In this document: piece by piece, positions 357 to 23,708 of the stretch | Layout of the letters: every line of letters begins with the position of its first letter | Position numbering within the stretch: position 1 is the first letter of the stretch | Sequence record: DRR378314_2199 | DNA length: 33,294 nt | Reading direction: 5' to 3' (one strand) | The notes under the pieces: generated by a model | Database searches by the model: none | What the model saw: only the letters and a program-made list of their open reading frames with translations | What the model was told of the DNA's origin: nothing | Translations under genes and position numbers: made by a program

Positions 357-456
357 CTGACAATCCATCTGATCCGTCTTGGCAATTCCCAAACCAAGAG
401 TAGTGTGCGATAAAGCTGCGAATACGCGTCAAAACTGCGCACATACCAGAGGACAT

Positions 457-3835: not shown

Positions 3836-5425
3836 ATGCGCGACTTTCATGACCCGAAACGTTCCCCGATTTACGCTGGCAATGGTGCCCTGGCCACCTC
3901 GCATCCGCTGGCAACCCAAGCGGGGCTTGAGGTTCTGAAACGCGGCGGTAATGCGGTGGATGCGGCGGTGACCGCAGCGGCGGTTCTGACGGTTGTTGAG
4001 CCCGCAATGACGGGGATTGGCGGGGACGGTTTTGCGCTTATCTCACAGCCCGGCAAGCCGCTGTATGGGTTGAACTCTTCGGGCCGGGCGGCGGCAGCGC
4101 TTTCCAGTGCCATGTTGCGCGATCAGGGCTGGAAAGAGATGGACGATGCATCGGCCCATTCTGTTACTGTACCGGGGGTGGTCAAAAGCTGGGAGAGCCT
4201 GCTGGAAAGCCATGGCACCTTTGGGCTGGACGCTGCGCTGCAACCGGCAATCCGCGCGGCTGAGGATGGGTTTGTGGTTTACCCTAGGGTCTGGAGCGAC
4301 TGGACCACATGTCAGGACAAGCTGTCTGCACAGGGCGTGGGCAGCAAACATTACCTGATCGATGGAAAAGCCCCAAAGATGGGCACGATCCACCGGCTTC
4401 CGGCATTGGCTGCGACGCTAAAGGTTATCGCAGACCAGGGCGCGCGGGGGTTTTACGAGGGTGCCGTGGCGGCCGATATTGTGGCCGAATTGCGCCAGCG
4501 TGGCGGGGTGATGAGCGAAGAGGATTTTGCGACCCATACCGCTGATCCTTGCACGCCCGTCACCGCAGGGTATCGTGATATTGATCTGGCGGAACTGCCG
4601 CCAAACGGCACCGGGATCACAGCGCAGATCATTCTAAACCTGTTGGAGCGTTTTGACGTCGCATCGCTTGCCCCTGACAGTGTCGAACGTTTGCATCTGG
4701 AGCTGGAAGCCGCGCGGGTTGGGTATGCCATTCGTGATGCTCATATCGGCGATCCGGCAACCATGGGTGTGACTGCTGAGGCTCTGATCGACAAAGCCTG
4801 GGCCAAGGGGCTATCGACAAGTATTGATCCAGCCAAACGTAACAATGACCTGCCGCCGGTGGACCCCAATTTCCAAAGTGACACGATCTATCTCAGCTGT
4901 GTGGATCGGGACGGCATGGCGGTTTCCTTGATCAATTCTGTGTTCAAGGGGTTCGGATCCGGGATTGTGACAGAAAAGACCGGGATCCACCTGCAAAACC
5001 GCGGTGCGGGGTTTCGTGTGCTGGACGGGCATCCGAACACGATTGAGGGGGGCAAGCGCCCGCTGCATACGATTATTCCGGCAATGGCCATGGCAGGTGA
5101 CAAACCGCGCTATTGCTTTGGCGTGATGGGCGGGCATTACCAGCCCTGCGGGCATGCGCATGTCATCACCAATATGGTCGATTTTGGGATGGACCCGCAG
5201 GAAGCCTTGGACAGCCCACGTGTGTTCTGGCAGCCAGATGGGACCTTGGAGGTCGAACCGACACTGGGGCAGGGGGTCTTGGACGGGCTGATCGCCAAGG
5301 GGCATAAAGCGGTGTTTAGCACGTCCGCAATCGGGGGTGGTCAGATCATTGAAATTGACCATCAGGCTGGGGTGTTGATTGCGGGGTCTGACCCCCGCAA
5401 AGATGGGTGTGCGCTGGGGTACTAA
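3836..5425 (+). CDS. ggt: Gamma-glutamyltransferase-family Ntn hydrolase (YwrD/HpxW-like, cytoplasmic)
   Basis: ATSHPLA, GGNAVDAAV, EPAMTGIGGDGF, autoprocessing site SD/TIYLSCVD, LQNRGAGF, KRPLHTIIP, GSDPRKDG; no signal peptide. Confidence 0.9.
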   Translation: MRDFHDPKRSPIYAGNGALATSHPLATQAGLEVLKRGGNAVDAAVTAAAVLTVVEPAMTGIGGDGFALISQPGKPLYGLNSSGRAAAALSSAMLRDQGWKEMDDASAHSVTVPGVVKSWESLLESHGTFGLDAALQPAIRAAEDGFVVYPRVWSDWTTCQDKLSAQGVGSKHYLIDGKAPKMGTIHRLPALAATLKVIADQGARGFYEGAVAADIVAELRQRGGVMSEEDFATHTADPCTPVTAGYRDIDLAELPPNGTGITAQIILNLLERFDVASLAPDSVERLHLELEAARVGYAIRDAHIGDPATMGVTAEALIDKAWAKGLSTSIDPAKRNNDLPPVDPNFQSDTIYLSCVDRDGMAVSLINSVFKGFGSGIVTEKTGIHLQNRGAGFRVLDGHPNTIEGGKRPLHTIIPAMAMAGDKPRYCFGVMGGHYQPCGHAHVITNMVDFGMDPQEALDSPRVFWQPDGTLEVEPTLGQGVLDGLIAKGHKAVFSTSAIGGGQIIEIDHQAGVLIAGSDPRKDGCALGY

Positions 5426-6165
5426 GGGGCGTTCTGCCGCCGCTTTGACCGTGCTCTGTAAGAGAACGGCAAGGATAGCAGATAGAGACAATTTGCGATG
5501 ATCAGCGTCGGCCAGGGATAGACCATCAAACAGACCACCAGCACCATGGCGGCAATCACCGCAATGGGCAGATGGGCGCGTTTGATGCTGGCATGTTTGA
5601 TGGAATAGGTTGGCACGGTGCTGACCGCCAACAGGCCAACGCCAATGATGTAGATGGCGCGCAGGATCGGGAAATCAGAGTTTTCCCAGCCGTGCAGATG
5701 CATAAAAACCGGCATCAGTGACAGGCAGGCAAGGGCAGGGGCGGGCACCCCGACAAAATACTCGTCTTTCTTCAGTGAAACATCACTGTCGTCGAGCGCC
5801 AGATTGAACCGCGCCAGCCGCAAGGCACAGCAAACCGCCAGCACGAGAGAGGCAAGCCAGCCCAGATTGGCAAAGTTGGTGTCGATATAGAGCGTATGAT
5901 AGAGCAACACACCCGGCACGATGCCGAAGTTGAAGAAATCCGCCAGAGTATCCAGTTCGGCACCGAAGGGGCTGGCGCTGTCCAGAAACCGCGCCAGTTT
6001 GCCATCGGCAGCGTCCAGAAACACCGCCAATAGGATGAAGTACAGTGCCATCTCAAGATGGCCTTCAAGGCTCATCCTGAGGGAGGTCATACCGGCGCAA
6101 ATTGCGAAAACCGTAACCACGCTGGGTACGATATGGCGCAGCTTGATTTTTGACGAATGGCTCAT
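5422..6165 (-). CDS. pssA: CDP-diacylglycerol--serine O-phosphatidyltransferase (phosphatidylserine synthase)
   Basis: CDP-alcohol phosphotransferase motif [10 protein letters not shown]...[32 protein letters not shown]; directly downstream of psd. Confidence 0.9.
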
Positions 6166-6854
6166 TCAGGGATACCGGGCCGTTGACGGGTTGGGTCGCG
6201 CAGATCAGCAAGGATCGTTTCTCCGGCAACGGCTGTCTGGCCCACGGAAACCAGCGGTGACACACCCTTTGGCAGGTAGATATCAAGACGGCTGCCGAAA
6301 CGGATCAGCCCGAACCGGTGACCGGCACCCAGCTGGCTGCCTTCTTGTACGAAACAGACGATCCGACGCGCCACAAGGCCGGCAATTTGCACCACACCGA
6401 TGCGCGCCCCTTCTTCGGTTTCGATGGTAAGGCTGTTGCGCTCGTTATGTTCGCTGGCCTTGTCCAAAGATGCGTTCAGGAATTTGCCATGACGATAAAC
6501 GATATTGACCACTTTTCCTGCGACGGGCGCGCGGTTCACATGGCAATTAAAGACGTTCATAAAGACTGACACACGGGTCAGTGGCGTATCGCCCAGCCCC
6601 AGATCAGGCGAGGGGACAACATCCTCGATCAAGGAAACAACCCCGTCAGCGGGTGAAATGACCAAACCGTCCTGTTGTGGGACAACCCGCACCGGATCAC
6701 GGAAAAAGTAATAACACCAGATAGTTGCCCCGACGCCCAACCAAAACAAGGGCTCCCAGACAAAAAACAGAACGGCAGTAATCGCGGCAAAGATCGCAAC
6801 AAATTTGCGTCCTTCGTTATGCATCGGCACCGCAACAATCTTGAGCATATTCAT
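6162..6854 (-). CDS. psd: Phosphatidylserine decarboxylase proenzyme
   Basis: [39 protein letters not shown], self-cleavage motif IRFGSRLD. Confidence 0.95.
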
Positions 6855-7272
6855 CAGTAGACTTTCAGGTCAGAGCGAAAGAGCGGCTCAGGCCGCCCCA
6901 ATAAAACTGCTTGCGCACAGCAGATAGATGCATGCAAGCGGTCTGGTTTCCTTGGTGTAGCGAGGCATTTATATCGTTCAGTTGCCAGCCGCTATCACCC
7001 CGGAAAACAGGAGTACCCTAGTGCAATAATCGATTATCTACACCTTAGCGAGTGCAACCGGTGCAAAAGAGCGGGTAGGGCAGGCGCGATATGCCGCAGT
7101 ATCCCTCCCACGAACAGCAATATTTTTGCGGAGGGCATCCATCACGGTCCGAGCAGCTTTGGTCAGATAGACGTCTGGAAATTGATCACGAGGCGGAAGG
7201 GTAGGTCATTTTGGCAGGAAAACCCTTGTGGCTAGGTTGTTCCTCATGATTTTGACCATGTTTCGACGAACC

Positions 7273-9033
7273 TTAGCGGCCCGCTTGCAAGGCTACAAAG
7301 TGACCGGGCGCGGCTTCGGCAAGTTGATAAGGCTGCGCTGCGTCCTTCGCGTCATAGTAGTCGGTCCGGTCCTGTTCGGCGACAACCGGAAGCGCGGTCA
7401 TCGACAACTGTAGGCCGTCCACCCCCTGTACCAATCTAGGCGATGCAGACATCAATCGGCGGGTGTAAGGATGTCGCGGAGCGGAAAACAATGTGCCTGT
7501 TTCTGCTTGTTCCATCACGCGGCCGCGGTGCAATACATAGAGCCTTGCACAAAGCTGTTCCACGATGTGTAAATCATGGCTGATAAACAGACATGCGAAC
7601 CCAAGTTTTTGCTGCAAATTCTTCAACAGATTCAATATCTGGGCCTGAATGGTAACATCCAAAGCTGATACTGGCTCGTCAGCAATGACCAGATCCGGTT
7701 GGCTGACCAATGCCCTTGCAATCGCAACCCGCTGACGCTGACCACCAGAAAGTGCATGCGGATATCGGCTGGCCATATCTGCAGACAGGCCTACAGCGGC
7801 CAATATTTCCATGGCGCGCGCTTGTTTTTCCATTTTGCTGAGATCGCGATCAAACCGCAAACCTTCACGCACGATTTGTTCGATACGCATGCGCGGATTG
7901 AGAGACGAATACGGGTCCTGAAACACGAACCGGATGCGCCGCCGCAACATATATTCTTCCGCCCCTGTGCAATCCCCCAGATTGGTATCGTCAAAAAGGA
8001 CCGTCCCGGATACCTGTGGTACCAGCTTGGCGATGGCGCGACCTATCGTGCTTTTGCCGCTGCCACTTTCTCCGACCAATCCGACAAATTCGCCGGGGCG
8101 GATGGCAAGTGATACGTTGCGCACTGCGTGGTTTACATTTTGTCCGAGTAACCCAAACAGCCGCTTTTCGACGAAATCTATGCTAAGATCATCCACGGCG
8201 AGAAGGGGTGTTGAATCGGTGCCGACAATTGGCGCAGCCACACCCAATTGCGTCGAGGCCAAGAGCCGTTTGGTGTAGTCGTGATTGGGCCGACGCAGCA
8301 CTTCATCGGTGTCGCCGGTCTCGACTAGCTCGCCCTTTTCCATAACTGCAATTCTTTGGGCGAAAGCGGCGACAGCTGCCAGATCATGTGAGATTAAGAT
8401 CACAGCAGTGCCATGCGCGCGCGCCACCTCGGCCATGATGTTAAGCACCTCATGCTGAACGATTGCATCCAGTGCGGTTGTTGGCTCATCAGCGATCAAC
8501 AGCGCAGGTTTCAGCATCATCACAGAGGCGATCATGATCCGTTGCCGCATCCCGCCGGAAAACTCATGTGGGTAACGGTTGACCAATCTCTCCGGGTTTT
8601 CCAGTTTGACCTGCTTTAGCATGTCTATCGCACGCTCACGAATGTCTCGCATGCTTAAATCGGTATGCTCTCGCATGGCTTCAAACATCTGTTCGCCAAT
8701 GCGAAGGTTGGGGTTTAGCGATGAAAGGGGTTCCTGGAAGATCAAACCGATTTCACGTCCACGCAGATGGCGCAGTTCGTCTTTGGTTGCCGGGTTGGTA
8801 ACATCATGGCCATTGAAGTGAATATGACCCTGGCTGACCCGCCCATTTCCCGGCACAAGACCTAGAATGGAACGGCCCAAAACGCTTTTGCCGCTGCCAC
8901 TTTCACCCACGAGGGCAAGGATTTCGCCCCGATCCAGCGTTAGGTTCACATCCCGGATGACCGAAGCCGCGCCAAAGGAAACTTCAAGATTGCTGATCGA
9001 CAGGATCGTGTCATTCTGTTCCAAATCCGTCAT
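7273..9033 (-). CDS. Peptide/nickel-type ABC transporter, fused double ATP-binding protein (DppD/DppF-like)
   Basis: Two NBDs: GESGSGKS...FSGGMRQR...ADEPTTALD and GESGSGKST...LSGGQRQR...ADEPVSALD; ATG 9033 preceded by GAGG. Confidence 0.93.
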   Translation of the reverse strand: MTDLEQNDTILSISNLEVSFGAASVIRDVNLTLDRGEILALVGESGSGKSVLGRSILGLVPGNGRVSQGHIHFNGHDVTNPATKDELRHLRGREIGLIFQEPLSSLNPNLRIGEQMFEAMREHTDLSMRDIRERAIDMLKQVKLENPERLVNRYPHEFSGGMRQRIMIASVMMLKPALLIADEPTTALDAIVQHEVLNIMAEVARAHGTAVILISHDLAAVAAFAQRIAVMEKGELVETGDTDEVLRRPNHDYTKRLLASTQLGVAAPIVGTDSTPLLAVDDLSIDFVEKRLFGLLGQNVNHAVRNVSLAIRPGEFVGLVGESGSGKSTIGRAIAKLVPQVSGTVLFDDTNLGDCTGAEEYMLRRRIRFVFQDPYSSLNPRMRIEQIVREGLRFDRDLSKMEKQARAMEILAAVGLSADMASRYPHALSGGQRQRVAIARALVSQPDLVIADEPVSALDVTIQAQILNLLKNLQQKLGFACLFISHDLHIVEQLCARLYVLHRGRVMEQAETGTLFSAPRHPYTRRLMSASPRLVQGVDGLQLSMTALPVVAEQDRTDYYDAKDAAQPYQLAEAAPGHFVALQAGR

Positions 9034-9034
9034 A

Positions 9035-9877
9035 TCAGATAACCTCGGATTGAGTTGCCGATTTCGGGTCAAGTTCATCGCGCAGGGCATCCCCAAGAAG
9101 GTTCACGCCCAAAAGCGCAACCGAAATGCATAGCCCGGGCAAAAGACCAAGCATTGGGTAGCGCATCAGGTCCGCCTTGGCTTCGGCCAGCATATTGCCC
9201 CAACTTGGTTCCGGTGGCGGTACACCTAACCCCAGAAAGCTAAGGGCGCTTTCCGCCAGAAGCACCCAGCCGAACATCATTGTCGACAAGACGATCAAGG
9301 GTGCCAAACAGTTGGGCAAGACATGCACGACCAATGTGTAAAGGCGACCATTACCCATGCTTGCAGAGGCTTCGACAAATTCACTCTGGCTGATTGAAAG
9401 AACCGAACCGCGCACCACCCGTGTCACTGCGGGCAGATAGGCCAAGGATAAGGCCAGAATAACCCCATATCGGTTGGCACCAATCACCGCCATCAAGCCA
9501 AGCGCCATCAACAGTCCGGGAAAGGCCATGAGCGCATCAAGCACCATCATCAGAAACCGGTCAAACCAGCCACGGAAAAAGCCACCTGCCGCGCCAAGAA
9601 ATGTTCCAACGACAATGGGGATAACCAAGGTGCCCAAACCAATGGAGACCGAAACCCACGCTCCGCGCATCAACCGTGAAACGATGTCGCGCCCGAACAT
9701 GTCCGTGCCCAAGGGATGCATAGCGGAGATTTCGCCAAAGCGGTTCATCAGGTCGGATTTCAACGGATCATAGGGCGTATAAAAACTCCCTACCAACGCC
9801 GTCGCAAATACAAGACTGACAAGTATGATCCCAATCAGTCCATTTGTACGATACAACAGCCGGCCAATAAAATTCAT
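9035..9877 (-). CDS. Peptide ABC transporter permease (DppC/OppC-like)
   Basis: HPLGTDMFGRD, EFVEASASMG, HVLPN, ESALSFLGLGVPPPEPSWG. Confidence 0.93.
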   Translation of the reverse strand: MNFIGRLLYRTNGLIGIILVSLVFATALVGSFYTPYDPLKSDLMNRFGEISAMHPLGTDMFGRDIVSRLMRGAWVSVSIGLGTLVIPIVVGTFLGAAGGFFRGWFDRFLMMVLDALMAFPGLLMALGLMAVIGANRYGVILALSLAYLPAVTRVVRGSVLSISQSEFVEASASMGNGRLYTLVVHVLPNCLAPLIVLSTMMFGWVLLAESALSFLGLGVPPPEPSWGNMLAEAKADLMRYPMLGLLPGLCISVALLGVNLLGDALRDELDPKSATQSEVI

Positions 9878-10821
9878 GACAAACGTACCCTTGGGTCGAA
9901 GAAGGAATAGGCGATATCAATGGTAAGGTTGGTCACCACGTAAATCGCGGCAATGAACAGTAATGCTCCCTGAAGGACGGGGTAATCACGCGCATAGATG
10001 GAATCGACCAACAGTTTGCCAATGCCGGGCAATGTAAACACCGTTTCGGTTACCGCAGCGCCAGACAGCAATCCCGCCAGCATGATCCCAACCATTGTGA
10101 GTGTCGGCGCGAAGGCATTGGGGAAAACATGTCGCCAAAGAACGCGGCGTTCCGGCAGCCCCTTGGCCCGCGCATGCGTGATATAGTCTTTTTGCATGAT
10201 TTCGAGGCTTCCGGCACGCATCATCCGCGTCAGCACGGCAATCTCGGTCAGCGCAAGCGCTGTAACGGGCATGATGAGATAGATCATGCCGCGGCCCAGA
10301 TCTTCGCCAATCGAAACGAAACCTATGGTTGGCAACCATCCCAGTATCGCACCAAACACTACCAGTAACATCAATCCGACCCAAAAGCTGGGCATCGAAA
10401 GCAAGACGATCGAACCAAATACAATGGAATAATCCGTGCTTTGGTTGTGACGGTGCGCCGCCAAAAGTCCCAATGGTACAGCGATCAAAAGAGAGGTCAG
10501 CATTGCAATCAGAACAACAGAGGCAGTTACACCGATCCGTTGCCACAGCAGGCTGCCGACATCCTGACCATTCATGATGGAGGTGCCTAAATTGCCAGAC
10601 AACACTTCACCCAACCAGGTAAGAAACTGGATTGGCAAAGGTTTGTCCAAGCCCAATTGCTCTCGCATCATCGCCAAGGCAGCTTCGTCATCCACGTCAC
10701 CCCCCAGCATCATCAGGGCCGCATCGCCGGGCAGCGCCCGAACCATGGTAAAGATGATGAGGGTAACAATGATGAGGGTCGGAACCGACATCAGTATTCG
10801 CTTTAGTATGAAACTGAACAA
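9874..10821 (-). CDS. Peptide ABC transporter permease (DppB/OppB-like)
   Basis: LPGDAA, LGLDKPLPIQF, GNLGTS, DYITHARAKGL, ETVFTLPGIG, RDYPVLQG, DPRVR; TTG start. Confidence 0.93.
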   Translation of the reverse strand: MFSFILKRILMSVPTLIIVTLIIFTMVRALPGDAALMMLGGDVDDEAALAMMREQLGLDKPLPIQFLTWLGEVLSGNLGTSIMNGQDVGSLLWQRIGVTASVVLIAMLTSLLIAVPLGLLAAHRHNQSTDYSIVFGSIVLLSMPSFWVGLMLLVVFGAILGWLPTIGFVSIGEDLGRGMIYLIMPVTALALTEIAVLTRMMRAGSLEIMQKDYITHARAKGLPERRVLWRHVFPNAFAPTLTMVGIMLAGLLSGAAVTETVFTLPGIGKLLVDSIYARDYPVLQGALLFIAAIYVVTNLTIDIAYSFFDPRVRLS

Positions 10822-10849
10822 GGTCCCGGCCCTCCTGTTTGTTTTCGGC

Positions 10850-12406
10850 TCAACCGTCTACCCGAAGCATCCAACCGCGCAACAGACCGGCACCCCAGTT
10901 CTCAAAACCGGAAACCTTGTCTGACATGCCAACAAACAGGGTGCGGTGGCCAAGTCCAATTGCCGGAACCTCTTCGATAAACATCATGTGCAGCTTATCG
11001 ACGATCTCTTGCCGCAGTTTGGGATCGCCTGTCGCAAGCAAAGTCCCCATCAATTCAATGGCCTCGGGGTTCTTCCAGGCCTTGCGATCCGCAGCGCCGG
11101 TGAACATTTCAAAGCTTAGCCCGGCATGCAGGCGCGGGGAAAAGGTGAAACTTTGCATGCCATAGCCTGTTCCCTTGCGATAGGCATCAAGCTGTGTTCC
11201 CCATTCGACGACTTCCAGCTTTGTGTTCAGACCGACCTCGGACATCATCGCTTGTGCCATCAAGGCGCGTTCATAATAGGCACCCGATCGACGTGTCGCG
11301 AGAATTTTGATCTCGGCACCGTCATATCCAGCCTCTTCCAGCAACGCCTTGGCCTTTTCGGGATCGTACTCGGGGTATTTCGCCTGAACTTCAGTATAAT
11401 TCGCCGACATTGGCGGTACGGGTGAAGGCGATGCCGTTCCAAAACCTTCGGTTATTGCCCCAACAATTTGTTGCGGGTCAATTGCGTGCGCCATGGCCTG
11501 ACGGACCCGCCGGTCATCCAGCGGTGCCTCGCGACTGTTCAGAAGATAGGTATCCCAGACCGCAGAATCGGTTGCGTCAACCTTGAAGCCTGCCGCTTCT
11601 TTAAGCTCTGCTGCGGTTGGCGCATCAATGGACACAAGATCAAGATCGCCCGCTTTCAAAGCAGTGGATCGCACCGCGGCTTCGCTCACGATGTCCCAAC
11701 GAATTTTATCAACTGTTGGATTTTTCCCACCGCCGTAGCCATTTATCGGTTCATCACGCGGCACATAATCCGCGAACTTGTTCACCTCTACATATCGGCC
11801 TGACATGTGTTTGCCCATCATATAGGGGCCGGTTGCAATGGGTGTGTTCCAGCTGCCATCTGCATTGACGGAATCGGGATGCAATACCGCGATCGAACCA
11901 CAATCAAACCGTGCCATAATCGCGAGAAAGACGGCGTAAGGACGGTCGAGTTCGATAACAAATGTATAGTCATCCGTGGCCTTGGCAGATGTTACCTTAA
12001 TGTTGTTCTTTCCGTTAAAATAGTTCACGCAATGCGACTCTGACTGCGGGCCGGCAAGTCGCTCCCACGACCATGCTACCTCTTTCGCAGTCATTTCCTG
12101 CCCGTTATGAAACTTCACACCTTTGCGAAGATGAAAGGTGTATGTTTTGCCATCTTCAGAGATGTCAAAGCTCTCTGCCAGCATCGGAATAATGCTAAAA
12201 TCGCTGCCATAGGTCACAAGCCCTTCAACGATATGGCCGTGAATCTGATCGGTATTGCCATCACGTGTGACGCCGGGGTTGGTGCCACGAATATCAGCGT
12301 TCAGCGATGTGCGCACTATGGATTGCGCTGCCGCAGGCAAGACACCACTCAATCCAAAAGCCGCCGCAAGAACGGCTGTTCCAAGAAGTCTATTTCTTTG
12401 TTTCAC
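10850..12406 (-). CDS. Peptide ABC transporter substrate-binding protein (family 5)
   Basis: Signal peptide (MKQRNRLLGTAVLAAAFGLSGVLPAAAQ), PMLAESFDISEDGKTYTFHLRKGVKFHNG, PIATGPY, DRRVRQAMAHAID. Confidence 0.93.
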   Translation of the reverse strand: MKQRNRLLGTAVLAAAFGLSGVLPAAAQSIVRTSLNADIRGTNPGVTRDGNTDQIHGHIVEGLVTYGSDFSIIPMLAESFDISEDGKTYTFHLRKGVKFHNGQEMTAKEVAWSWERLAGPQSESHCVNYFNGKNNIKVTSAKATDDYTFVIELDRPYAVFLAIMARFDCGSIAVLHPDSVNADGSWNTPIATGPYMMGKHMSGRYVEVNKFADYVPRDEPINGYGGGKNPTVDKIRWDIVSEAAVRSTALKAGDLDLVSIDAPTAAELKEAAGFKVDATDSAVWDTYLLNSREAPLDDRRVRQAMAHAIDPQQIVGAITEGFGTASPSPVPPMSANYTEVQAKYPEYDPEKAKALLEEAGYDGAEIKILATRRSGAYYERALMAQAMMSEVGLNTKLEVVEWGTQLDAYRKGTGYGMQSFTFSPRLHAGLSFEMFTGAADRKAWKNPEAIELMGTLLATGDPKLRQEIVDKLHMMFIEEVPAIGLGHRTLFVGMSDKVSGFENWGAGLLRGWMLRVDG

Positions 12407-12444
12407 GAGCTTTCTCCCTGTTAGTTCTGTTGATTATCTGCCTC

Positions 12445-13557
12445 TTAATGAAGGCTATAGATTGTTGTTTCATTTGATTCATAAGGAAGCTGGCGCACCC
12501 GCAGTTCGCCGGCCCCCGCATCCATCAAAACCATTGCAACGGTGGCAGACAGGTAAGCGTTTGGTTCACCTTCATTGTCTTTTGGTTGTCGTATGATGCC
12601 GCGTGGCAGGCCGAACCGGTCGTCCAATGCGACAGCCAAGGTGTCCAGGTCGTGCTTGACCTCCGCGCCCTCAATCAGGCTGCGCAGACGCCGGTTGCGA
12701 AACAGGGTGTCCGCCCCGCGTGCAATTCCCAGATCACGTTCGCGCACACAGGCTGATGCGTTCATAAAGTGGTTTGAATGGGTCAAGCAGGCACCCTCCG
12801 GCGCGTCCCAGTATATTTCGGTAGGGGTGGTTTCGAAGTTCAGACAATCGCCGCTTTCGGCGCAGCTGATTGTCATGTTGTTCGAAACCGTGCGTGGCAA
12901 ACGATAAAGTTCTGTTAGCGCTTGAGAGTATCCGCCCGCTTCCAGTACCCTGCGCCGGATGACCGACAGTGGCACGCCAAAGGGCGCATGGCCGTCCTGA
13001 CCGCTGACCAGATTATTCCCTGTAATCGCCACACCGCGATCATTGAATCCGGCGCGGGCCAGCCCGCCCGCCTCGACATAGGTCAGAATGTCGGGATGTT
13101 TGTCATTACGGATTTTAAGAACAACCGTGCTTTCGGAACAATCCGCCAACCAATCCCAGTTTTGGACGTGGAGCAATCTCCCGCTTTTCGTCAACTCGGG
13201 CAGAACGACAGCTGAGGTACAGCCATCATCAAGGTTAGAAATATCCGTCGGGCGCTGCGCGTGCAGATTGATAATTTCACTGCGGCCGTTAATCACCAGA
13301 ATCTCTTCCAGTTTGACACCGGCACCTTTGGCGATGCCGCGCAATTCCTCCATGGCTTCGGGAACCTGCGGGGCAAGTGCCTCGCGCAATTCTGCGGCAT
13401 AGGCCAAGACGCTGTCCCAGTTCAGACCGTGTCTGTCCAACAGCGCCTCATAAACCCCAAGGCCGTGACGCACCTGAACATCAGCTTGTTTGCCATAAGA
13501 CAGGCCGCGTTCAAATGCGGGACCTTCTATTTCGACCAGTTTGGGTTGTGTAGCCAT
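12445..13557 (-). CDS. C45-family autoproteolytic acyltransferase/amidohydrolase (isopenicillin-N acyltransferase/Tan-like)
   Basis: ERGLSYG, EELRGIAKGAG, Gly/Cys autocleavage site DDG-C113-TS, QNWDW, GFNDRGVAITGNNL, THSNHF. Confidence 0.88.
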   Translation of the reverse strand: MATQPKLVEIEGPAFERGLSYGKQADVQVRHGLGVYEALLDRHGLNWDSVLAYAAELREALAPQVPEAMEELRGIAKGAGVKLEEILVINGRSEIINLHAQRPTDISNLDDGCTSAVVLPELTKSGRLLHVQNWDWLADCSESTVVLKIRNDKHPDILTYVEAGGLARAGFNDRGVAITGNNLVSGQDGHAPFGVPLSVIRRRVLEAGGYSQALTELYRLPRTVSNNMTISCAESGDCLNFETTPTEIYWDAPEGACLTHSNHFMNASACVRERDLGIARGADTLFRNRRLRSLIEGAEVKHDLDTLAVALDDRFGLPRGIIRQPKDNEGEPNAYLSATVAMVLMDAGAGELRVRQLPYESNETTIYSLH

Positions 13558-14426
13558 TATCGTTTACCCGGTTCAGGCAAGCGATCCCGCAGGACATCAT
13601 TGAAAAACCGTTCGACGTAAGGAAACACTCCGCGCATGTCATGCGGTACGCCGGGGGCCACATCATGCCAGACATCAATACCCCGCGCCTGTAAAGACTC
13701 GCGCAGCGTATCCAGTCGTTCATTACGGTTTTTACCGGCACTATTCGCACCTGGGATCACATCTGGCCCATCTTCGGGGAAGGTGATTTCCCATTCTTCG
13801 GTATCGGCCGCACCGACCGACATATGCACCTTGACCTGCTTGAGTGCATCGAAATCAATGCCATGCCCGAAGATATTGCGGAAATCACGAACGCCGGGCC
13901 ACCAATCCATTGTTTCGTCCAACAAGGTAACAGAGCCGGGCGCGCCGATCGACACCGCCTTTAGGCGGTCAGGATGCAGATAGAGAAACCGATGTGTAAA
14001 ATGCCCGCCGCCGGAGAAGCCAAACAACATGAATTTTTCAAACTGTCGTTTGATCAGCTCTCCGGCTTGCGTCACCATCGCCAAGAGCACATCGTCATAG
14101 CGAATGTCGCCTTCCAGCATGTATTTATAACCGTTGGCATTCAAATCCCCCGCAACACCTACTGGGAAGAGGGGGGCTAAGATTACACAGTTGTTGTATT
14201 TGCCAAAACTTGAAAATGCATTGCGATACTCTGACTGCAGCCGCATTGTGCCATGTACCGCCACAAGAAGATCAAGCTGTCGATCAGGTTCATCCCATGC
14301 ACTTTCCGGGATGTAGAGCATGAACGAGAATCGCGGATCATGCTTGCAAGCCAAAATCGTTGTGTTCCCGGTAAGATAAAGCGTTCGCGTGCGCTGCTCT
14401 CGGTTGTCATTCAGTCTTGGCAACAT
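13557..14426 (-). CDS. Alpha/beta serine hydrolase resembling poly(aspartic acid) hydrolase PahZ1
   Basis: VAVHGT oxyanion motif, ILAPLFPVG, GYKY...IRYD, nucleophile elbow FGFS138GGGHFTHRFLYLHP, VSIGAPG, DWWPGVR, VGAAD208TE-WEI, PGVPH262; similarity to PahZ1 recognised from memory. Confidence 0.8.
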   Translation of the reverse strand: MLPRLNDNREQRTRTLYLTGNTTILACKHDPRFSFMLYIPESAWDEPDRQLDLLVAVHGTMRLQSEYRNAFSSFGKYNNCVILAPLFPVGVAGDLNANGYKYMLEGDIRYDDVLLAMVTQAGELIKRQFEKFMLFGFSGGGHFTHRFLYLHPDRLKAVSIGAPGSVTLLDETMDWWPGVRDFRNIFGHGIDFDALKQVKVHMSVGAADTEEWEITFPEDGPDVIPGANSAGKNRNERLDTLRESLQARGIDVWHDVAPGVPHDMRGVFPYVERFFNDVLRDRLPEPGKR

Positions 14427-14459
14427 TTTCCACGCCTTCCTTTGTGAAAATCTAGGGCG

Positions 14460-14488
14460 ACGCTAGCCATCAAATTTATTGGAGTCAA
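14460..14488 (-). promoter_or_regulatory. Candidate sigma70 promoter of the hydrolase-C45-ABC operon
   Basis: Minus strand TTGACT-N17-TAGCGT, 33 bp upstream of the 14426 start. Confidence 0.55.
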
Positions 14489-14499
14489 AATATATTTAT

Positions 14500-14515
14500 A
14501 AATTGGCGCCAATTT
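14500..14515. promoter_or_regulatory. Candidate GntR/FCD operator
   Basis: Perfect 16-bp palindrome AAATTGGCGCCAATTT between the divergent operons; degenerate copy ATTGGAGTCAAA at 14478-14489 overlaps the -35. Confidence 0.65.
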
Positions 14516-14587
14516 TATGCTGCAATATTGATTGAGCAGGTTTTTATCGCTACAACCCACAAACCACCCGCCGACTCACAGGATAAA

Positions 14588-15262
14588 ATGACAGAACCAA
14601 TCAACGAAGGTGGGGCGAAAATGACCCCGGACGATATTTCGCAACTGCTGATGGCAGATATCAACATCGGTATTTTTCGGCGTGGTGAATGGTTGAAACA
14701 GATTGATCTGGAGCGGCGCTATAGCTGCACCCGTATCAAAGTGCGTAATGCGCTTAGCTACCTTCATTCACAGCGTTTGATTGAACATATTCCGAACCGT
14801 GGATACCGCGTGCCGGAACCAAATCCCTCACGGGAAAAAGAGATTGGCGAGGTTCGTGCCCTTCTTGAGGCCCATGCTGCTGCTGATGCAATTGAGCGTG
14901 CAACAACCGCCGACATCGACAAGTTGCAGTCCCTTGCAGAGGACTTTCGCGATGCGGCCTATAACGGAACATCCTTCGCGCAGATGGAGGCGAACCGCGC
15001 TTTTCACACGGTGCTTTACGGCTTCTGCCAGAATGAGTTCCTGCACGAATTGATTTTGGACATGCGCCGCCAAGGTCCTGCCGCCCCGATTGGTCAGTGG
15101 CAAACCATGGCCCAGTTGCAAAACTCGACCCAGGATCACTTCGACATCGTAGAGGCGATCCGGCAGCGCGACCTGACCGCCTTACGCGGCATTATCGCCC
15201 GCCACATCACCGGGAATCTTCAAGAAATTGACGAAACAGGCACATCGGAGACATCTGTATGA
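14588..15262 (+). CDS. GntR family transcriptional regulator (FCD domain)
   Basis: wHTH GEWLKQIDLERRYSCTRIKVRNAL...IPNRGYRV; FCD motifs RALLEAHAA, NRAFH, QDHFDIVEAIRQRD; start could be 14621. Confidence 0.9.
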   Translation: MTEPINEGGAKMTPDDISQLLMADINIGIFRRGEWLKQIDLERRYSCTRIKVRNALSYLHSQRLIEHIPNRGYRVPEPNPSREKEIGEVRALLEAHAAADAIERATTADIDKLQSLAEDFRDAAYNGTSFAQMEANRAFHTVLYGFCQNEFLHELILDMRRQGPAAPIGQWQTMAQLQNSTQDHFDIVEAIRQRDLTALRGIIARHITGNLQEIDETGTSETSV

Positions 15263-16212
15263 CACTTGACCCGGCTCTTGAACGGATGCTCACTGTTTCG
15301 CGCGAAAAAGGTGGCCCGGCTTTGAATGAAATGGCACTTAGTGATGCCCGTGGTGCCATGCGTGATATGTTTCTTGCCAACGGATACCCCACCTGTCACG
15401 CCGCTGAGGTCACCCATATTCCAGCAGAAGCCTGCGGCGGCACCTTCAGTTTGTACATCTATCGTCCCGCAAACGCCCAGGGCGCACTTCCTGCTGTGAT
15501 CTATTTTCATGGCGGTGGTTTTGTTCTTGGGGATGCGGCCACCTACGACACCCATTCACGCGCCCTTGCTCATCTGCTTGGGGTGGCCGTGGTTTTTGTT
15601 GAGTATCGGCTTGCGCCTGAGTATCGGTTCCCTGCAGCAGTCACGGATACCTGCGCGGCAATCGACTATATTGCCGATGCATCGATTGATCTGGGTCTGA
15701 ATCCAAATTGTCTGGTGGCGATGGGGGAGAGCGCTGGTGGCAATCTTGCGGTCAATGCCGTTCTGCATGCCCATCGAAAGGGTGATCTGCGGTTCAACGG
15801 CCTTTGCCTGATTTATCCGCTTGTCGACATGCAGCCGCTTGCTGAGGCGACTGTGCGCTATCCTTCCGTTGCGAAATTTGGCACCGGTACGAACCTTGAT
15901 TTGGAAGAAATGGGATGGTTCCGCGAAAACTATCTCAACAGCACGGATGAAGGCACCTTGCCGGAAAACACATTGCTGTTTCAACCTGACCTCGATCTGT
16001 TACCGCGCACACGGATCTATGTCGGAGAGTGTGATCCACTGCGTGACATGGGACTGGCATTCGCACCTTTGCTTATTGAAAACGGTGTAGACGCCAAGTC
16101 GGAAATCCTGCCGGGCATGATGCATAGTTTCATGTGCCAGGGGAACGTATCTGCTTTGGCCCTCAGACATTTCTTCCGTATCGTCGAAGATCTGGCTGAT
16201 CTGATGCGCTAG
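15259..16212 (+). CDS. Alpha/beta hydrolase, HSL/Aes-like esterase
   Basis: YFHGGGFVLG, EYRLAPEYRFPAA, GESAGGNLA, CDPLRD, GMMHSF; ATGA overlap with gntR. Confidence 0.92.
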   Translation: MTLDPALERMLTVSREKGGPALNEMALSDARGAMRDMFLANGYPTCHAAEVTHIPAEACGGTFSLYIYRPANAQGALPAVIYFHGGGFVLGDAATYDTHSRALAHLLGVAVVFVEYRLAPEYRFPAAVTDTCAAIDYIADASIDLGLNPNCLVAMGESAGGNLAVNAVLHAHRKGDLRFNGLCLIYPLVDMQPLAEATVRYPSVAKFGTGTNLDLEEMGWFRENYLNSTDEGTLPENTLLFQPDLDLLPRTRIYVGECDPLRDMGLAFAPLLIENGVDAKSEILPGMMHSFMCQGNVSALALRHFFRIVEDLADLMR

Positions 16213-16553
16213 CGTTGCTATTCGATGGGCGGCGACGCTCATAAGAGGGTAACAAACGCGGCCCGTGGTTTCGTGCGCGGCTGGTCATCTGGCAGCCGAT
16301 CGCGGCGAGCGCTGGCTGAAATGATGTGGCGGCACCTGCAATTGATGTTGGTGACGCATCTCTTTCTGCCACACATCTGCTTTGAGAATTAGGTGAGCGA
16401 AATGCAGTAACCGTTGGGCCGCTGGTGAGACTTATTGCTGAGCCGCAGTAAAACGAAACCCCAAGCATGGGAAACAGAACATGGGTTGCCCCAAAGGGCC
16501 ACTTTGAAGATACCAGTTCCTCGACGTCGCGCGTGTCTCAATCCCATTGGGGG

Positions 16554-16582
16554 AAAAGATTGCCTTGATCCAAGGCAATCTT
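16554..16582 (-). terminator. Rho-independent terminator downstream of gabT
   Basis: Perfect 12-bp inverted repeat aagattgccttg-atc-caaggcaatctt (16556-16582), ending in a short T run on the minus strand, 15 bp after the gabT stop. Confidence 0.7.
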
Positions 16583-16597
16583 CTGGGTCGACTGGTC

Positions 16598-17887
16598 TTA
16601 TCCCGCTGAAATAGCGGCCTCAATTGACGCTTCCAGTATATCCAGCGCCTCGTTTACCTGTTCGATTGGCGTGGTCAAAGGTGGCAGCAAGCGCACAACA
16701 TTGCCAAATGTCCCGCAGGGCAGGATGATCAAACCGCGCTCTTCTGCTTCGGCGATGACGCGCCCTGTCAGTGGGGCATCGGGACCATTGCTTTCGCGAT
16801 CCGTGACCAATTCAAAGGCAACCATGGCACCAAGGCCCCGCACGTCGCCAATGGGCTCCATCCCTTGCCGTTCTGCCAGTGCTTTCAGGCGGCTTTGAAT
16901 CATGTCCCCGATCTGGGTCGCACGTTCGCAGAGTACTTCTTCTTCAATCACCTCAAACACTGCATTCGCAGATGCAACAGAAAGCGGGTTGCCGGCGTAG
17001 GTACCACCAATCCCCCCGACAGGAGCTGCATCAACGACTTCGGCGCGTCCTGTAACTGCCGACAAAGGGAAACCGCCCGCCAGCCCTTTTGCCATCACCA
17101 TAAGGTCAGGCACGACACCGGAGTGCTCAAATGCAAACAGCTTGCCGGTCCGCGCCATCCCTGCCTGAACCTCATCGGCAATCAACATGATACCATGGGT
17201 GTCGCAGATCTCGCGCAGCTTCTTCAGGAATTCTTGCGGTGCGATGTTAAAGCCGCCTTCGCCCTGAACGGGTTCGATGATGATTGCGGCAACACGTTCG
17301 GGATCTATGGAAGATCTCAGCATGTTTTCCAGTACCGCAATCGACTGCTCAACCGTGACGCCCTGCATCGCGTTTGGAAACGGGGCGTGCATGACCTCTG
17401 GCGGCATGGCACCAAAGGCTTTTTTATAGGGGTTCACCTTGCCACAAAGCGCCATACCCAACAGGGTGCGCCCGTGAAATGCGCCACTGAAACCAATGAC
17501 GCCAGAACGACCTGTATAGGCGCGGGCCATCTTCACGGCATTCTCAACCGCTTCGGCACCCGTCGTGACCAGCATGGTTTTCTTGTCGAATGACCCCGGC
17601 GTTGACGCATTCAACCGTTCGGCCAGCTTCAGATAGCCCTCGTAAGGTGCGACGTGAAAGCAGGTATGGGTAAACTGTTCAGATTGTTGTGCAACGGCGG
17701 CCATCAGTTTTGGATGGCGATGCCCGGTATTGTTCACAGCAATACCCGCAGCAAAGTCGATGAAGCGTTTGCCATCGACATCCCACAGCTCTGCATTCTG
17801 TGCTCTCGCAGCATAGATGCCCCGTGTGCCGACGCCCTGAGCGACGGCATTCGTCCGACGTGTGATGAGTTCTTCTGTATTGGTCAT
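16598..17887 (-). CDS. gabT: 4-aminobutyrate/5-aminovalerate--2-oxoglutarate aminotransferase (class III PLP)
   Basis: DFAAGIAVNNTGHRHP, THTCFHV, TTGAEAVENAVK, FHGRT, EPVQGEGGF, ADEVQAG, MAKGLAGGFPLS, GGTYAGNP; ATG 17887 with GGAGG RBS. Confidence 0.93.
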   Translation of the reverse strand: MTNTEELITRRTNAVAQGVGTRGIYAARAQNAELWDVDGKRFIDFAAGIAVNNTGHRHPKLMAAVAQQSEQFTHTCFHVAPYEGYLKLAERLNASTPGSFDKKTMLVTTGAEAVENAVKMARAYTGRSGVIGFSGAFHGRTLLGMALCGKVNPYKKAFGAMPPEVMHAPFPNAMQGVTVEQSIAVLENMLRSSIDPERVAAIIIEPVQGEGGFNIAPQEFLKKLREICDTHGIMLIADEVQAGMARTGKLFAFEHSGVVPDLMVMAKGLAGGFPLSAVTGRAEVVDAAPVGGIGGTYAGNPLSVASANAVFEVIEEEVLCERATQIGDMIQSRLKALAERQGMEPIGDVRGLGAMVAFELVTDRESNGPDAPLTGRVIAEAEERGLIILPCGTFGNVVRLLPPLTTPIEQVNEALDILEASIEAAISAG

Positions 17888-17914
17888 AGTTGCCTCCAAG
17901 CGATTCTTGAAAAG

Positions 17915-17943
17915 ATATTGCTCATTATTTTGAGCAATGTTAA
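17915..17943 (-). promoter_or_regulatory. Candidate gabT promoter with a PuuR-type operator in the spacer
   Basis: Palindrome ATTGCTCA-N6-TGAGCAAT (17917-17938) inside minus-strand TTAACA-N17-CAATAT. Confidence 0.6.
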
Positions 17944-17992
17944 CCTTTTTCTTGAGCGAAAATTTGAGTAACCAGCATCTTGGGCCAAAAAT

Positions 17993-18592
17993 ATGAATGA
18001 TAGCGGCAAGATTGAAGAAGAGTTCGATGTAGGGCTGCGTTTACGTGAAATACGCTTACAATATGGGCTTTCGCAACGCCAACTTGCTGATAAGGCCGGG
18101 GTTCCACATGGGCAAATCTCAATGATTGAGACAAATAAGAGCAGCCCCTCTGTTGCATCATTGCGCAAGATATTGGGTGGATTCGGCATTAATATGTCAG
18201 AGTTTTTTGAGCCTGATGTGATCGAACAGACTCAGGTGTTTTTCACGCCGGGGGATCTGAGAGATCTCACATCCCAGCTGTACCAAGGTCAGGACGCCAA
18301 GCGGACGATGCTGACCTTGAAGCAAGTCGGCGATGCCAAAACACATGGTCTGCAAATTTTGCATGAACGCTATGAGGCCGGTGCCGACACCGGTGATGAT
18401 CTGATCGAACATGAAGCGAGCGAAGGTGGCATTGTTATTGCGGGAGAGCTGGAAGTGACTGTCGGCAATGAAGTGCGCGTTTTGAAAGCCGGCGACGCCT
18501 ATCTGTTCAACAGCCGCCAACCGCATCGTTTTCGCAATATCTCTGATCGTGCCGCTGAAGTTGTTTCAGCGTGTACGCCACCTTATTTGTAG
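17993..18592 (+). CDS. puuR: XRE-cupin transcriptional regulator, PuuR-like
   Basis: GLSQRQLADKAGVPHGQISMIETNKSSPSVASLRKIL, MSEFF, cupin GADTG...HEASEGG...GDAYLFNSRQPHRFRN, SACTPP; divergent from gabT. Confidence 0.85.
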   Translation: MNDSGKIEEEFDVGLRLREIRLQYGLSQRQLADKAGVPHGQISMIETNKSSPSVASLRKILGGFGINMSEFFEPDVIEQTQVFFTPGDLRDLTSQLYQGQDAKRTMLTLKQVGDAKTHGLQILHERYEAGADTGDDLIEHEASEGGIVIAGELEVTVGNEVRVLKAGDAYLFNSRQPHRFRNISDRAAEVVSACTPPYL

Positions 18593-18601
18593 GAAGTATA
18601 T

Positions 18602-19696
18602 ATGTCCCCTCTTGAAGGTCTGAAAGTCGTTGAGCTTGCCCGTATCCTGGCAGGGCCTTGGATAGGTCAAACGCTCGCCGATCTTGGTGCTGAGGTGACC
18701 AAGGTTGAAAGCCCTGATGGCGATGACACCCGCACTTGGGGCCCTCCGTTCATCGAGCGGGAGGGCGATAAGAGTGCTGCATATTTCTACAGTGCCAATC
18801 GTGGTAAAAAGAGCCTGCGGGCAGATCTGAAATCCCCCGATGACGTGCAGAAGGTATTGGATCTGATCAAGGACGCCGATATTTTCATCGAGAATTTCAA
18901 GGTCGGGGGACTTGCAAAGTTCGGGTTGGATTACGGCAGCCTGAAAGCCGTGAACCCGGGATTGATCTATTGCTCTGTCACCGGATTTGGCCAGACGGGC
19001 CCGCTTGCCAACCTGCCGGGGTATGATTTCCTGTTGCAGGGCATGTCCGGTCTGATGTCAGTTACCGGAGAGCCCGAGGGCACGCCGCAAAAAGTGGGCG
19101 TGGCGGTTACCGATGTTGTTACCGGTCTTTATGGCACAATCGGGATAATGGCGGCGGTGCAGCAGCGCCATGCGACGGGCAGGGGGCAGCACATTGATAT
19201 GTCCCTGCTTGATTGTGCGACGGCACTTCTTGCCAATCAAAACATGAATTTTCTTGCGTCTGGCACTTCGCCGACCCGCATGGGAAACGCGCATCCGAAT
19301 ATCTGTCCTTATGATGTCTTCGATACGAAGGATGGGCATGTAATTCTGGCGGTTGGAAACAATGGGCAGTTCCAACGGTGCTGCATGGTTCTGGGACTTG
19401 CAGATGTGGCCGAAGATCCACGATTTCTAACCAATCAACTTCGGGTCGATAACCGAAACGACTTGGTGAAAATCCTGACGGCTGCAACGAAGCAATGGCA
19501 CCGCGCGGAGTTTTTGGAGGCGATGTCGGTGAACAATGTGCCCGCGGGACCGATTAATACGATAGGTGAAAACCTCGAGAGCGCCCATTCACAGGCGCGC
19601 GGGCTTGTTGTGGCACCACAAGGCGTCAAGGGTATCCGCACACCAATCGTGTTTTCCGATGCAGAGTTGGCGATCAACCTAACGGCACCAAGCTGA
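18602..19696 (+). CDS. Class III (CaiB/BaiF) CoA-transferase, succinyl-CoA:glutarate CoA-transferase-like
   Basis: LEGLKVVELARILAGPW, LADLGAEV, GDDTRTWGPPF, NRGKKS, ENFKVG, YCSVTGFGQTGP, catalytic Asp region KVGVAVTDVVTG. Confidence 0.9.
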   Translation: MSPLEGLKVVELARILAGPWIGQTLADLGAEVTKVESPDGDDTRTWGPPFIEREGDKSAAYFYSANRGKKSLRADLKSPDDVQKVLDLIKDADIFIENFKVGGLAKFGLDYGSLKAVNPGLIYCSVTGFGQTGPLANLPGYDFLLQGMSGLMSVTGEPEGTPQKVGVAVTDVVTGLYGTIGIMAAVQQRHATGRGQHIDMSLLDCATALLANQNMNFLASGTSPTRMGNAHPNICPYDVFDTKDGHVILAVGNNGQFQRCCMVLGLADVAEDPRFLTNQLRVDNRNDLVKILTAATKQWHRAEFLEAMSVNNVPAGPINTIGENLESAHSQARGLVVAPQGVKGIRTPIVFSDAELAINLTAPS

Positions 19697-20989: not shown

Positions 20990-21030
20990 TTGTCGTCTCC
21001 CGTTAGGTGTCGATGTTATTGTTTCTCCGG

Positions 21031-22059: not shown

Positions 22060-22062
22060 GCT

Positions 22063-22977: not shown

Positions 22978-23708
22978 ATCGCATCCTCCGACTGGTCTTG
23001 TCCGAAATATGCTTCCTTGAGCAGGTCGCTTTCAGCGAACTTCGCGGCATCTCCGTCTCCCACCACTGCGCCGCCACGCAACAGCAACATACGCCCGCCG
23101 ACACGTGCCGCACGGGCCGAGCTTTGCTCGACGATGATCAGGGTGAGGCTGCGGTCATTTTGCAGATTGACCAATGTCTCATAGACTTGGTCGACGATGT
23201 TGGGGGCCAATCCCAAGGATGGTTCATCCACCAGCATCAGTTTGGGGTTGGTCATCAACCCGCGCCCGATGGCTAACATTTGTTGTTGTCCGCCCGACAG
23301 TGCGCCCGCATTTGCGTTTCGCCGTTCTTTGAGGATGGGGAAGCTTTGGTAAATCTCTTCAATGTCCGTTTCAATGACGGCCTTGTCGCGGCGTATGCCT
23401 GTACCGACGCGCAGGTTCTCTTCCACCGTGAGGGTCCCAAAAATTTCGCGCCCCTCGGGCACCATCGTCAGGCCCAGACGGGCAATCGCCTCGGGGGTGC
23501 GGCCGTTCAACACAACACCATCCACTTCGATCCGCCCATGGGCCGTAGCGACGGCACCACAAATCGCCTTCAGCAAAGAGGATTTTCCGGCACCGTTCGG
23601 GCCGGAAATGAACAACCGCTCTCCTTCTTCAACGGTAAAGGTGACATCGGAAAGTGCGGGGACTTTCCCATAACGGACGGCAACATCGAATATGCCCAGT
23701 TTAGACAT
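22974..23708 (-). CDS. Liv-type ABC transporter ATP-binding protein (LivF-like)
   Basis: GPNGAGKS, VPEGREIF, LSGGQQQMLAIGR, DEPSLGLAP; TGATG coupling to the livG-like gene. Confidence 0.93.
   Translation of the reverse strand: MSKLGIFDVAVRYGKVPALSDVTFTVEEGERLFISGPNGAGKSSLLKAICGAVATAHGRIEVDGVVLNGRTPEAIARLGLTMVPEGREIFGTLTVEENLRVGTGIRRDKAVIETDIEEIYQSFPILKERRNANAGALSGGQQQMLAIGRGLMTNPKLMLVDEPSLGLAPNIVDQVYETLVNLQNDRSLTLIIVEQSSARAARVGGRMLLLRGGAVVGDGDAAKFAESDLLKEAYFGQDQSEDAI

Follow-up and report, generated by a model that had tools for sequence, protein, structure and literature searches.

Among known systems, the locus reported here comes closest to those in which an ABC importer is teamed with a cytoplasmic hydrolase that acts on an iso-linked peptide. 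IaaA of E. coli, for one, has isoaspartyl-peptidase activity. Its operon, iaaA-gsiABCD, brings together an N-terminal nucleophile (Ntn) hydrolase for iso-linked peptides, a family-5 solute-binding protein (SBP), two permeases and a fused double ATPase (the make-up is that given in PMC10355420); GsiABCD is a glutathione importer. In S. aureus the glutathione importer GisABCD is encoded with Ggt, and that paper describes Ggt in the cytoplasm, working with an importer, as no more than the second known example. The locus we describe lies in a stretch of DNA of 33,294 nucleotides from sequence record DRR378314_2199; we call this whole stretch the window. Six genes in a row encode an alpha/beta serine hydrolase (abH), a C45-type Ntn hydrolase (C45), a family-5 SBP, two permeases (permB and permC) and a fused ATPase. 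Facing them across a palindrome are genes for a GntR regulator and an HSL-family esterase. We think it highly probable that this is a GntR-controlled locus for importing and hydrolysing a compound. We also lean towards the narrower reading that it takes up and cleaves an acidic amide that is non-alpha or N-blocked.

The likeness to S. aureus lies in an ABC importer encoded with a cytoplasmic Ntn hydrolase, which in S. aureus cleaves a gamma-linked peptide after intact import. Relatives of our locus in Rhizobium, Bosea and Azospirillum carry a GGT-like gene without a signal peptide in the abH operon itself. The window operon differs in having abH and C45 instead of Ggt, a GGT-like gene that lies outside the operon, and control by an FCD-type GntR protein. 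The gene content of iaaA-gsiABCD recurs in the window as well, but here the Ntn enzyme is of the C45 (Cys) type, not the asparaginase-2 (Thr) type, and there is an extra serine hydrolase. The window proteins also score far below the Gsi equivalog cut-offs (GsiB 134/594, GsiA 473/1077, GsiC 223/463, GsiD 226/484), so the transporter is not a Gsi orthologue.

Evidence that these genes belong together comes from related loci. We took the best 80 of 567 genomic relatives of abH, found with two abH peptide patterns, and scored a gene as present when tblastn with the window protein matched at E<=1e-10 over at least 50% coverage. At least one transporter gene is present in 75 of the 80 loci and all four in 65 (SBP in 72, permB in 72, permC in 71, ATPase in 66). 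A GntR homologue occurs in 52 loci, and in 46 it is divergent and directly upstream of abH. C45 is found in 44, in 18 of them directly after abH and in 26 elsewhere within 7 kb; the count is an underestimate, since further Achromobacter copies lie beyond the 7-kb flank or in a second operon. A class-III aminotransferase is present in 18 loci, GGT-like genes in nine (three of these cut by the locus end) and the HSL esterase in nine. These numbers bear out the linkage of abH-like, C45, Dpp-type and GntR genes that a first-pass annotation of this DNA had proposed. That annotation also counted C45 and the HSL esterase among the parts. Both are indeed at the locus, but a constant role is not borne out for either: C45 is missing from many loci and the HSL esterase is lineage-specific. 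We believe the conserved core is abH with the importer, and that several amide hydrolases, C45 among them, can replace one another or be added to it.

The arrangements themselves fall into recognizable types. The order seen in the window, with GntR divergent from abH-C45-SBP-permeases-ATPase, is shared by marine Alphaproteobacteria, Erwinia, Sodalis, Halotalea and a metagenome-assembled genome of the Enterobacterales. In the Pseudomonas fluorescens group and some Achromobacter a LysR gene stands before abH-SBP-permeases-ATPase and there is no C45. Achromobacter has a second complete operon in the order C45-permease-permease-ATPase-abH-SBP. Five loci have no ABC gene, one in Stella and four in Caballeronia/Paraburkholderia; in one of the Caballeronia loci (L062) a LysR gene stands before abH-MFS-DUF72, with the MFS carrier following abH. 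Elsewhere in that Caballeronia genome (L101, G009:C9, 8319-12175) LysR stands before C45, an MFS gene and a Cys/Met pyridoxal-phosphate (PLP) enzyme, an arrangement that mirrors L062. A tree of abH with 78 rows, built without three loci whose abH open reading frame (ORF) was not in the cluster, places the window among marine alphaproteobacterial loci and gathers the LysR-type loci almost into a single clade. Three loci from organisms named Rhizobium sp. L1K21 and Nitratireductor (two) are of the Rhodobacteraceae type (L002, L005, L008; abH 79-81% identity) and nest within that clade, which suggests transfer of the abH locus among marine Alphaproteobacteria.

The regulator and its site were compared in the same loci. 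The GntR protein scores 86.4 bits against PF07729 (FCD) and 25.9 bits, just below the cut-off of 27, against PF00392, so it has the winged helix and C-terminal FCD domain of the FadR/FCD subfamily. The first-pass annotation had pointed to an operator between the divergent units, and the perfect palindrome there is centred about 81 nt from either start, the abH start codon on one side and the gntR ATG on the other. Its 12-bp core, ATTGGCGCCAAT, is found exactly in 39 of the 51 loci with a GntR ORF cluster as against one of the 29 without; in the former it is almost always no more than about 100 nt upstream of abH. Allowing one mismatch adds seven loci and a site upstream of C45 in Pandoraea, and Achromobacter and Bordetella loci with a downstream GntR have a second near-copy before the SBP gene. 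In the window there is one exact copy, and five sites with up to two mismatches where 3.2 are expected; it is conservation of the core at the same place in related loci that puts the palindrome beyond chance. This is strong comparative evidence that GntR and palindrome are a regulator-operator pair kept together across two proteobacterial classes. The regulator looks local in reach, because a search for the 12-mer in the genomes of five relatives gave no shared regulon: seven sites lay outside abH loci, six inside ORFs and one intergenic beside a DUF411 gene.

What kind of bond is cut can be approached through the genes that take or share the place of C45. Rhizobium, Sinorhizobium, Azospirillum and Bosea have abH coupled with a gene for a GGT-like Ntn hydrolase without a signal peptide. 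On pRL12 of Rhizobium johnstonii 3841 and in Rhizobium sp. NZLR1 this gene overlaps the abH stop, the protein has no signal peptide, and the plasmid order is SBP-abH-ggt-permease-permease-ATPase-ATPase; in S. meliloti Rm41 (pSymA) a GGT-like match lies directly 3' of abH. A look through literature on R. leguminosarum pRL12, with a term search of the main text of PMC3333776 as available (supplementary tables outside it), gave no mention of the abH-ggt locus. Bosea has C45, abH, GGT and an aminotransferase clustered together, so GGT does not simply stand in for C45. Protein fusions add further partners. Frankiales-type proteins combine an abH part (48% identity) with a Peptidase_M19 dipeptidase, and other fusions pair abH with a CN_hydrolase (nitrilase-superfamily) amidase, AtuA/DUF4387 or an MFS carrier. 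Since GGT, M19 and CN_hydrolase, which act on unusual amides, share or occupy the place of the second hydrolase in other lineages, the class of non-alpha amides is partly supported. The three aminotransferases tested, of the 18, score as the omega-aminotransferase AptA above the NCBIfam cut-off. Enzymes of this type turn up in two settings that are unrelated: in Bosea and Microvirga they adjoin the C45 module, and in Achromobacter the gene closes an abH-ABC operon that lacks C45. Literature on AptA yielded nothing of use. One Achromobacter locus (L100, G008:C1) has two genes with CE4 polysaccharide-deacetylase domains directly upstream of its C45-SBP module on the same strand (10085-12864).

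The importer is of the family-5 (Dpp/Opp/Nik) kind, with an SBP_bac_5 protein, two BPD_transp_1 permeases and an Opp-type ATPase with an oligo_HPY tail. The ATPase scores 523 bits against YejF and 473 against GsiA, both under cut-off. The best solved relatives of the SBP are HbpA (3m8u, 1e-45) and DppA (1e-43). The match to DppA brings up ordinary peptide salvage, in which alpha-linked di- or tripeptides, perhaps with D- or acidic residues, are imported and abH and C45 serve as cytoplasmic peptidases. The M19 dipeptidase fusion agrees with this, as do the DPP4/FAP-type serine peptidases that Foldseek lists for the abH model at lower rank. The details of the SBP argue otherwise. DppA Asp408 and Arg355 presumably hold the ammonium and carboxylate groups of the peptide, yet in three alignments of the SBP family (including HMMER alignments to DppA and HbpA) no acidic residue stands at Asp408. 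At this place the family instead has the motif S-x-R-[LF]-[DH], with the Arg invariant, and a [KR]R pair lies near the Arg355 region. The SBP thus does not have the Asp408 and Arg355 pattern of alpha-dipeptide binding seen in DppA, and its ligand probably lacks a free alpha-amine. Furthermore, the GGT, C45 and CN_hydrolase partners are not alpha-peptidases, the dedicated repressor and conserved operator argue for one specific inducer, and an omega-aminotransferase is linked. We consider peptide salvage unlikely.

The same transporter scores can be read as metallophore or siderophore handling. A Nik/Cnt-like importer would take up a metal chelate (opine-type or citrate/hydroxamate) and the hydrolases would free the metal or recycle the parts. 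The top NCBIfam matches are NikA for the SBP and nickel-transporter types for the permeases, the Foldseek list includes the fungal siderophore esterase EstB, and the aminotransferase could handle released diamines. In Achromobacter sp. Bel (L103, G010:C56:180000-198000) the paralogous C45-permease-permease-ATPase-abH-SBP operon adjoins a TonB-dependent receptor and an FhuF-like ferric reductase. That neighbourhood is seen in only one of the four extra loci examined, though, and the nickel and opine equivalogs, like all NCBIfam equivalogs for the SBP, are far below their cut-offs. Control is by GntR, LysR or IclR regulators (metal-regulator sites were not searched for), and the GGT and M19 partners do not fit. 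This explanation strikes us as quite improbable.

The abH protein matches nothing in Pfam or NCBIfam, even at E up to 10, and the Protein Atlas gives generic alpha/beta hydrolase clusters only. It belongs to a large family: representatives of 50%-identity clusters number 304, 1202 and 3111 at E<=1e-30, 1e-10 and 1e-3. Its nearest solved relatives are the PahZ1 enzymes of Pedobacter KP-2 (9o7u) and Sphingomonas KT-1 (6ve6) and the protein LpqC (3d0k). A phmmer search with abH gives them 1e-6, 1.6e-5 and 3.8e-6. A profile of 20 relatives, chosen from 120 listed matches for named and diverse organisms, gives 1.5e-15, 4.2e-12 and 5.8e-9. With the AlphaFold (AF2) model (mean pLDDT 90.9) these three structures fill Foldseek ranks 1-5 at TMq 0.64-0.71 and 19-23% identity. 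Ser138, Asp208, His262 and many Arg are invariant in the 20 aligned relatives, and the family consensus at the nucleophile is G[FY]SGGG. The model, the Foldseek matches and the invariant triad together show the fold and Ser-Asp-His triad of PahZ1. As in PahZ1 there is a basic loop after the catalytic Asp. The invariant R234 and R237 may fall in the loop that in PahZ1 carries the Arg positioning the substrate (R246 in KT-1, R215 in KP-2).

In other respects abH departs from PahZ1. According to PMC13017698 and PMC4456602, PahZ1 cuts beta-Asp amide bonds in poly(aspartate), and the former describes it as periplasmic. The abH N-terminus, MLPRLNDNREQRTR, has no hydrophobic segment by eye, and the lipase box reads GFSGG instead of GHSAG (GFSAG in KP-2). 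In published work the active PahZ1 homologues had been chosen at more than about 40% identity to KT-1, with KP-2 35-41% identical to it, values well above those for abH. By these comparisons abH is PahZ1-like in fold and triad and is not a member of the PahZ1 family. The label "PahZ1-like" in the first-pass annotation therefore stands for the nearest solved relatives and falls for family membership. That annotation also suggested that this context could reveal the natural substrate of PahZ1, but the low identity, the lack of a signal peptide and the missing PahZ1 features mean that the locus cannot do so by itself. Since abH works downstream of an importer for small molecules, it is unlikely to act on a polymer. 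One abH-like sequence is eukaryotic by name: P0128 of Mycena chlorophos (609 aa) has a DAGAT domain and an abH-like part (43% identity over 77% of the query), and may be a merger of gene models or a true eukaryotic homologue.

The kinship with LpqC and the JGI name "poly(3-hydroxybutyrate) depolymerase" on many relatives suggest another reading, in which abH is a depolymerase or esterase acting on hydroxy-acid oligomers, depsipeptides or fragments of synthetic polyamide or polyester. The HSL esterase would help, and it is co-located in the nine loci mentioned. Its protein scores 178 bits against PF07859 and has the HGGG(F) oxyanion and GESAG(G) motifs of the HSL family (family IV, with Abhydrolase_3 and GxSxG). 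It reaches no NCBIfam equivalog (LipP1 family, 222 bits against a cut-off of 350). The database names are automatic, though, and no hydroxy-acid dehydrogenase appears among the neighbours scanned. The family-5 importer, C45, GGT, M19 and aminotransferase all point to nitrogen-containing amides. We regard ester catabolism as very unlikely.

The second hydrolase of the operon can be placed more closely. C45 scores 235.8 bits against NF040521 (cut-off 85) and 43.3 against PF03417 (cut-off 23.2), and matches fungal IAT (2x1d) at 3e-19 with its DGC113T aligned with DGC103T. The D-G-C is invariant in all 44 C45 sequences. By model score and cleavage motif the protein is a member of the peptidase C45 family, and it is predicted to be a self-processing proenzyme cut between Gly112 and Cys113 to give an N-terminal Cys nucleophile. 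It may act as an amidohydrolase or as an acyltransferase. A search for longer, fused C45 forms found none, which is weak evidence. Fungal IAT, a C45 enzyme, removes a delta-aminoadipyl group. Drosophila Tan, another, cleaves beta-alanyl amines (PMC1285064). The window enzyme shares the predicted self-processing, the Gly-Cys site and the family models with IAT and Tan, and differs in belonging to a bacterial subfamily linked to an importer. Literature searches found nothing relevant on peptidase C45 together with an ABC transporter, and no bacterial C45 study among the matches listed for IAT, Tan or beta-alanyl in bacteria. We know of no characterised member of this bacterial subfamily.

The beta-alanine connection deserves a word since abH or C45 might be a pantothenase for breakdown of pantothenate or pantetheine, with the released beta-alanine passing to the omega-aminotransferase. 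The linked AptA-type enzyme, an SBP ligand probably without a free alpha-amine and the abH-only operons of the P. fluorescens group are all compatible with this. Pantothenase was first described in that group. The neighbourhoods scanned contain no pantoate-handling genes (PanE, PanB, dehydrogenases), however, and the GGT and M19 partners go unexplained, so we give the idea very little credence.

Taken together the clues speak for a small acidic amide that is N-blocked or iso-linked, and the compound may differ between lineages. The first-pass annotation had proposed uptake and cytoplasmic cleavage of non-alpha amides. That class is plausible and partly supported by the linkage, the amide-hydrolase partners, AptA and the SBP without an Asp408 equivalent, while the particular compounds it named (isoAsp peptides, beta-Asp-Arg, beta-alanyl amides) do not gain support. 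Its term "depolymerisation" lacks support: an importer of the Dpp type makes such a process unlikely, and in some relatives an MFS carrier is used instead.

We picture the locus as a substrate-inducible catabolic unit. In the absence of inducer an FCD-GntR dimer on AAATTGGCGCCAATTT would repress both divergent units, as the conservation of the site suggests. By homology, the SBP would bind its ligand in the periplasm, a small anionic compound resembling a peptide, and the permeases and fused ATPase would import it intact. In the cytoplasm it would be cut by the two hydrolases made by coupled translation, abH and the self-cleaved C45. The bonds would most likely be non-alpha amides (gamma-glutamyl-, beta-aspartyl- or beta-alanyl-type) or those of an N-blocked peptide, and the products ordinary and omega-amino acids. 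The HSL esterase, made with the repressor, would be a lineage-specific accessory, perhaps removing an ester or acyl decoration.

Several observations weigh against a non-alpha or N-blocked acidic amide as the substrate. Our statements on chemistry are all inferred. The 80 loci are close relatives only, since they were found through two abH peptide patterns. Partner genes vary by lineage (C45, GGT, CE4 deacetylases, Cys/Met PLP enzyme, aminotransferase or none), so family members may act on different compounds, and what is found in Bosea or Rhizobium need not fit the window. Two Pseudomonas genomes with abH and the importer have no match to the window C45 anywhere. The alignments of the SBP to DppA and HbpA are at about 25% identity. 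R234 of abH matches the PahZ1 arginine in one HMMER alignment and is shifted in the profile alignment. In the flanks of two close relatives the GGT-like gene of the window has no match beside the operon. We rejected the window aminotransferase as part of the system; it is of the gamma-aminobutyrate (GABA) type (TIGR00700 above cut-off), and none of the close relatives L001-L008 and L023 has it in its flanks.

The layout of the locus is as the first-pass annotation described it, with every part of the six-gene operon and the divergent gntR-HSL pair recovered by ORFs and family scans (Table 1). The spacings from abH to C45, SBP, permB, permC and ATPase are -1, 38, 28, -4 and 1 nt, so the six genes form one tightly packed unit. 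The C45 start overlaps the abH stop by 1 nt, the likely ATG of the ATPase comes 1 nt past the permC stop, and the HSL start overlaps the gntR stop by 4 nt. The earlier claim that neither operon hydrolase has a signal peptide is likewise borne out: with N-termini judged by eye, without a signal-peptide program, abH and C45 show no hydrophobic segment and the SBP has one, ending AAA before QS.

Table 1. Features of the locus and of its surroundings in the window
Feature	Position	Strand	Basis or remark
abH	14426..13557	-	289 aa; Ser138 (GFSGGG)-Asp208-His262 alpha/beta serine hydrolase; ORF list and alignments
C45 Cys-Ntn proenzyme	13557..12445	-	370 aa; NF040521 and PF03417
Family-5 SBP, signal peptide by eye	12406..10850	-	PF00496 1.7e-87
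ABC permease, DppB/NikB-like (permB)	10821..9874	-	PF00528 and PF19300
ABC permease, DppC/NikC-like (permC)	9877..9035	-	PF00528
Fused ATPase with two nucleotide-binding domains, YejF/GsiA architecture	ORF 9096..7273 (TTG 9096; likely ATG 9033)	-	two ABC_tran stretches and oligo_HPY
Operator palindrome AAATTGGCGCCAATTT	14500..14515		perfect 16-bp palindrome
FCD-type GntR regulator	ORF 14528..15262, probable ATG 14588	+	PF07729 2.7e-24
HSL-family (family IV) esterase	15259..16212	+	PF07859 2.5e-52
ParA/MipZ-type ATPase	379-1851		
ParB_N protein	1826-2929		
GGT-like gene	3836-5425		no signal peptide
GABA-type aminotransferase	17899..16598		TIGR00700
Small unit with the aminotransferase	16598-19696		
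Second catabolic unit	19820-29704		
Guanylate-kinase-like and ABC ATPase genes	31792-33017		end of the window

A protein of Rhodobacteraceae bacterium D3-12 shares 91% identity with abH, and judged by its homologues the host is a marine member of the Rhodobacteraceae. Because ParA- and ParB-like genes open the window, it may be a piece of a plasmid or chromid. Two sequencing runs, guessed to be RNA, cover positions 5000-19000 merely in brief, patchy contigs at low depth, which speaks neither for nor against expression. The GGT-like gene lies about 1.8 kb beyond the ATPase gene with psd and pssA between. Lacking a signal peptide, its protein is probably cytoplasmic; identity is 32% to the GGT inside the Rhizobium operon and 43% to that of Phyllobacterium (L021). 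We do not count it as part of the system. On the other side, the aminotransferase stands with a cupin-HTH regulator and a family III CoA-transferase in what looks like a separate small unit. Beyond it is a second catabolic unit with hydantoinase/oxoprolinase A and B, a branched-chain-type ABC importer and an AraC regulator. The pair of genes at the end of the window reminds us of phosphonate-utilisation genes.

Gamma-glutamyl, beta-aspartyl and beta-alanyl compounds, which withstand ordinary peptidases, occur commonly in exudates of plants, algae and microbes, and to our knowledge few bacterial routes for their uptake and cleavage have been described. A broader idea is that abH founds a new family of cytoplasmic iso-peptide hydrolases and, with C45, GGT-like or M19 partners, makes up a widespread bacterial route for the intact uptake and breakdown of gamma-glutamyl- and beta-aspartyl-linked compounds. 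We regard it as doubtful. If it were true, glutathione analogues, phytochelatin-type (gamma-Glu-Cys)n, gamma-Glu dipeptides and short pieces of poly-gamma-glutamate would be candidates, and it would give a first natural role to PahZ1-like enzymes and to bacterial C45 proteins. The locus itself is compact, its genes are widely conserved, and repressor and operator form a matched pair. Assigning its substrate would give functions to a hydrolase family that has no model and to the bacterial branch of C45.

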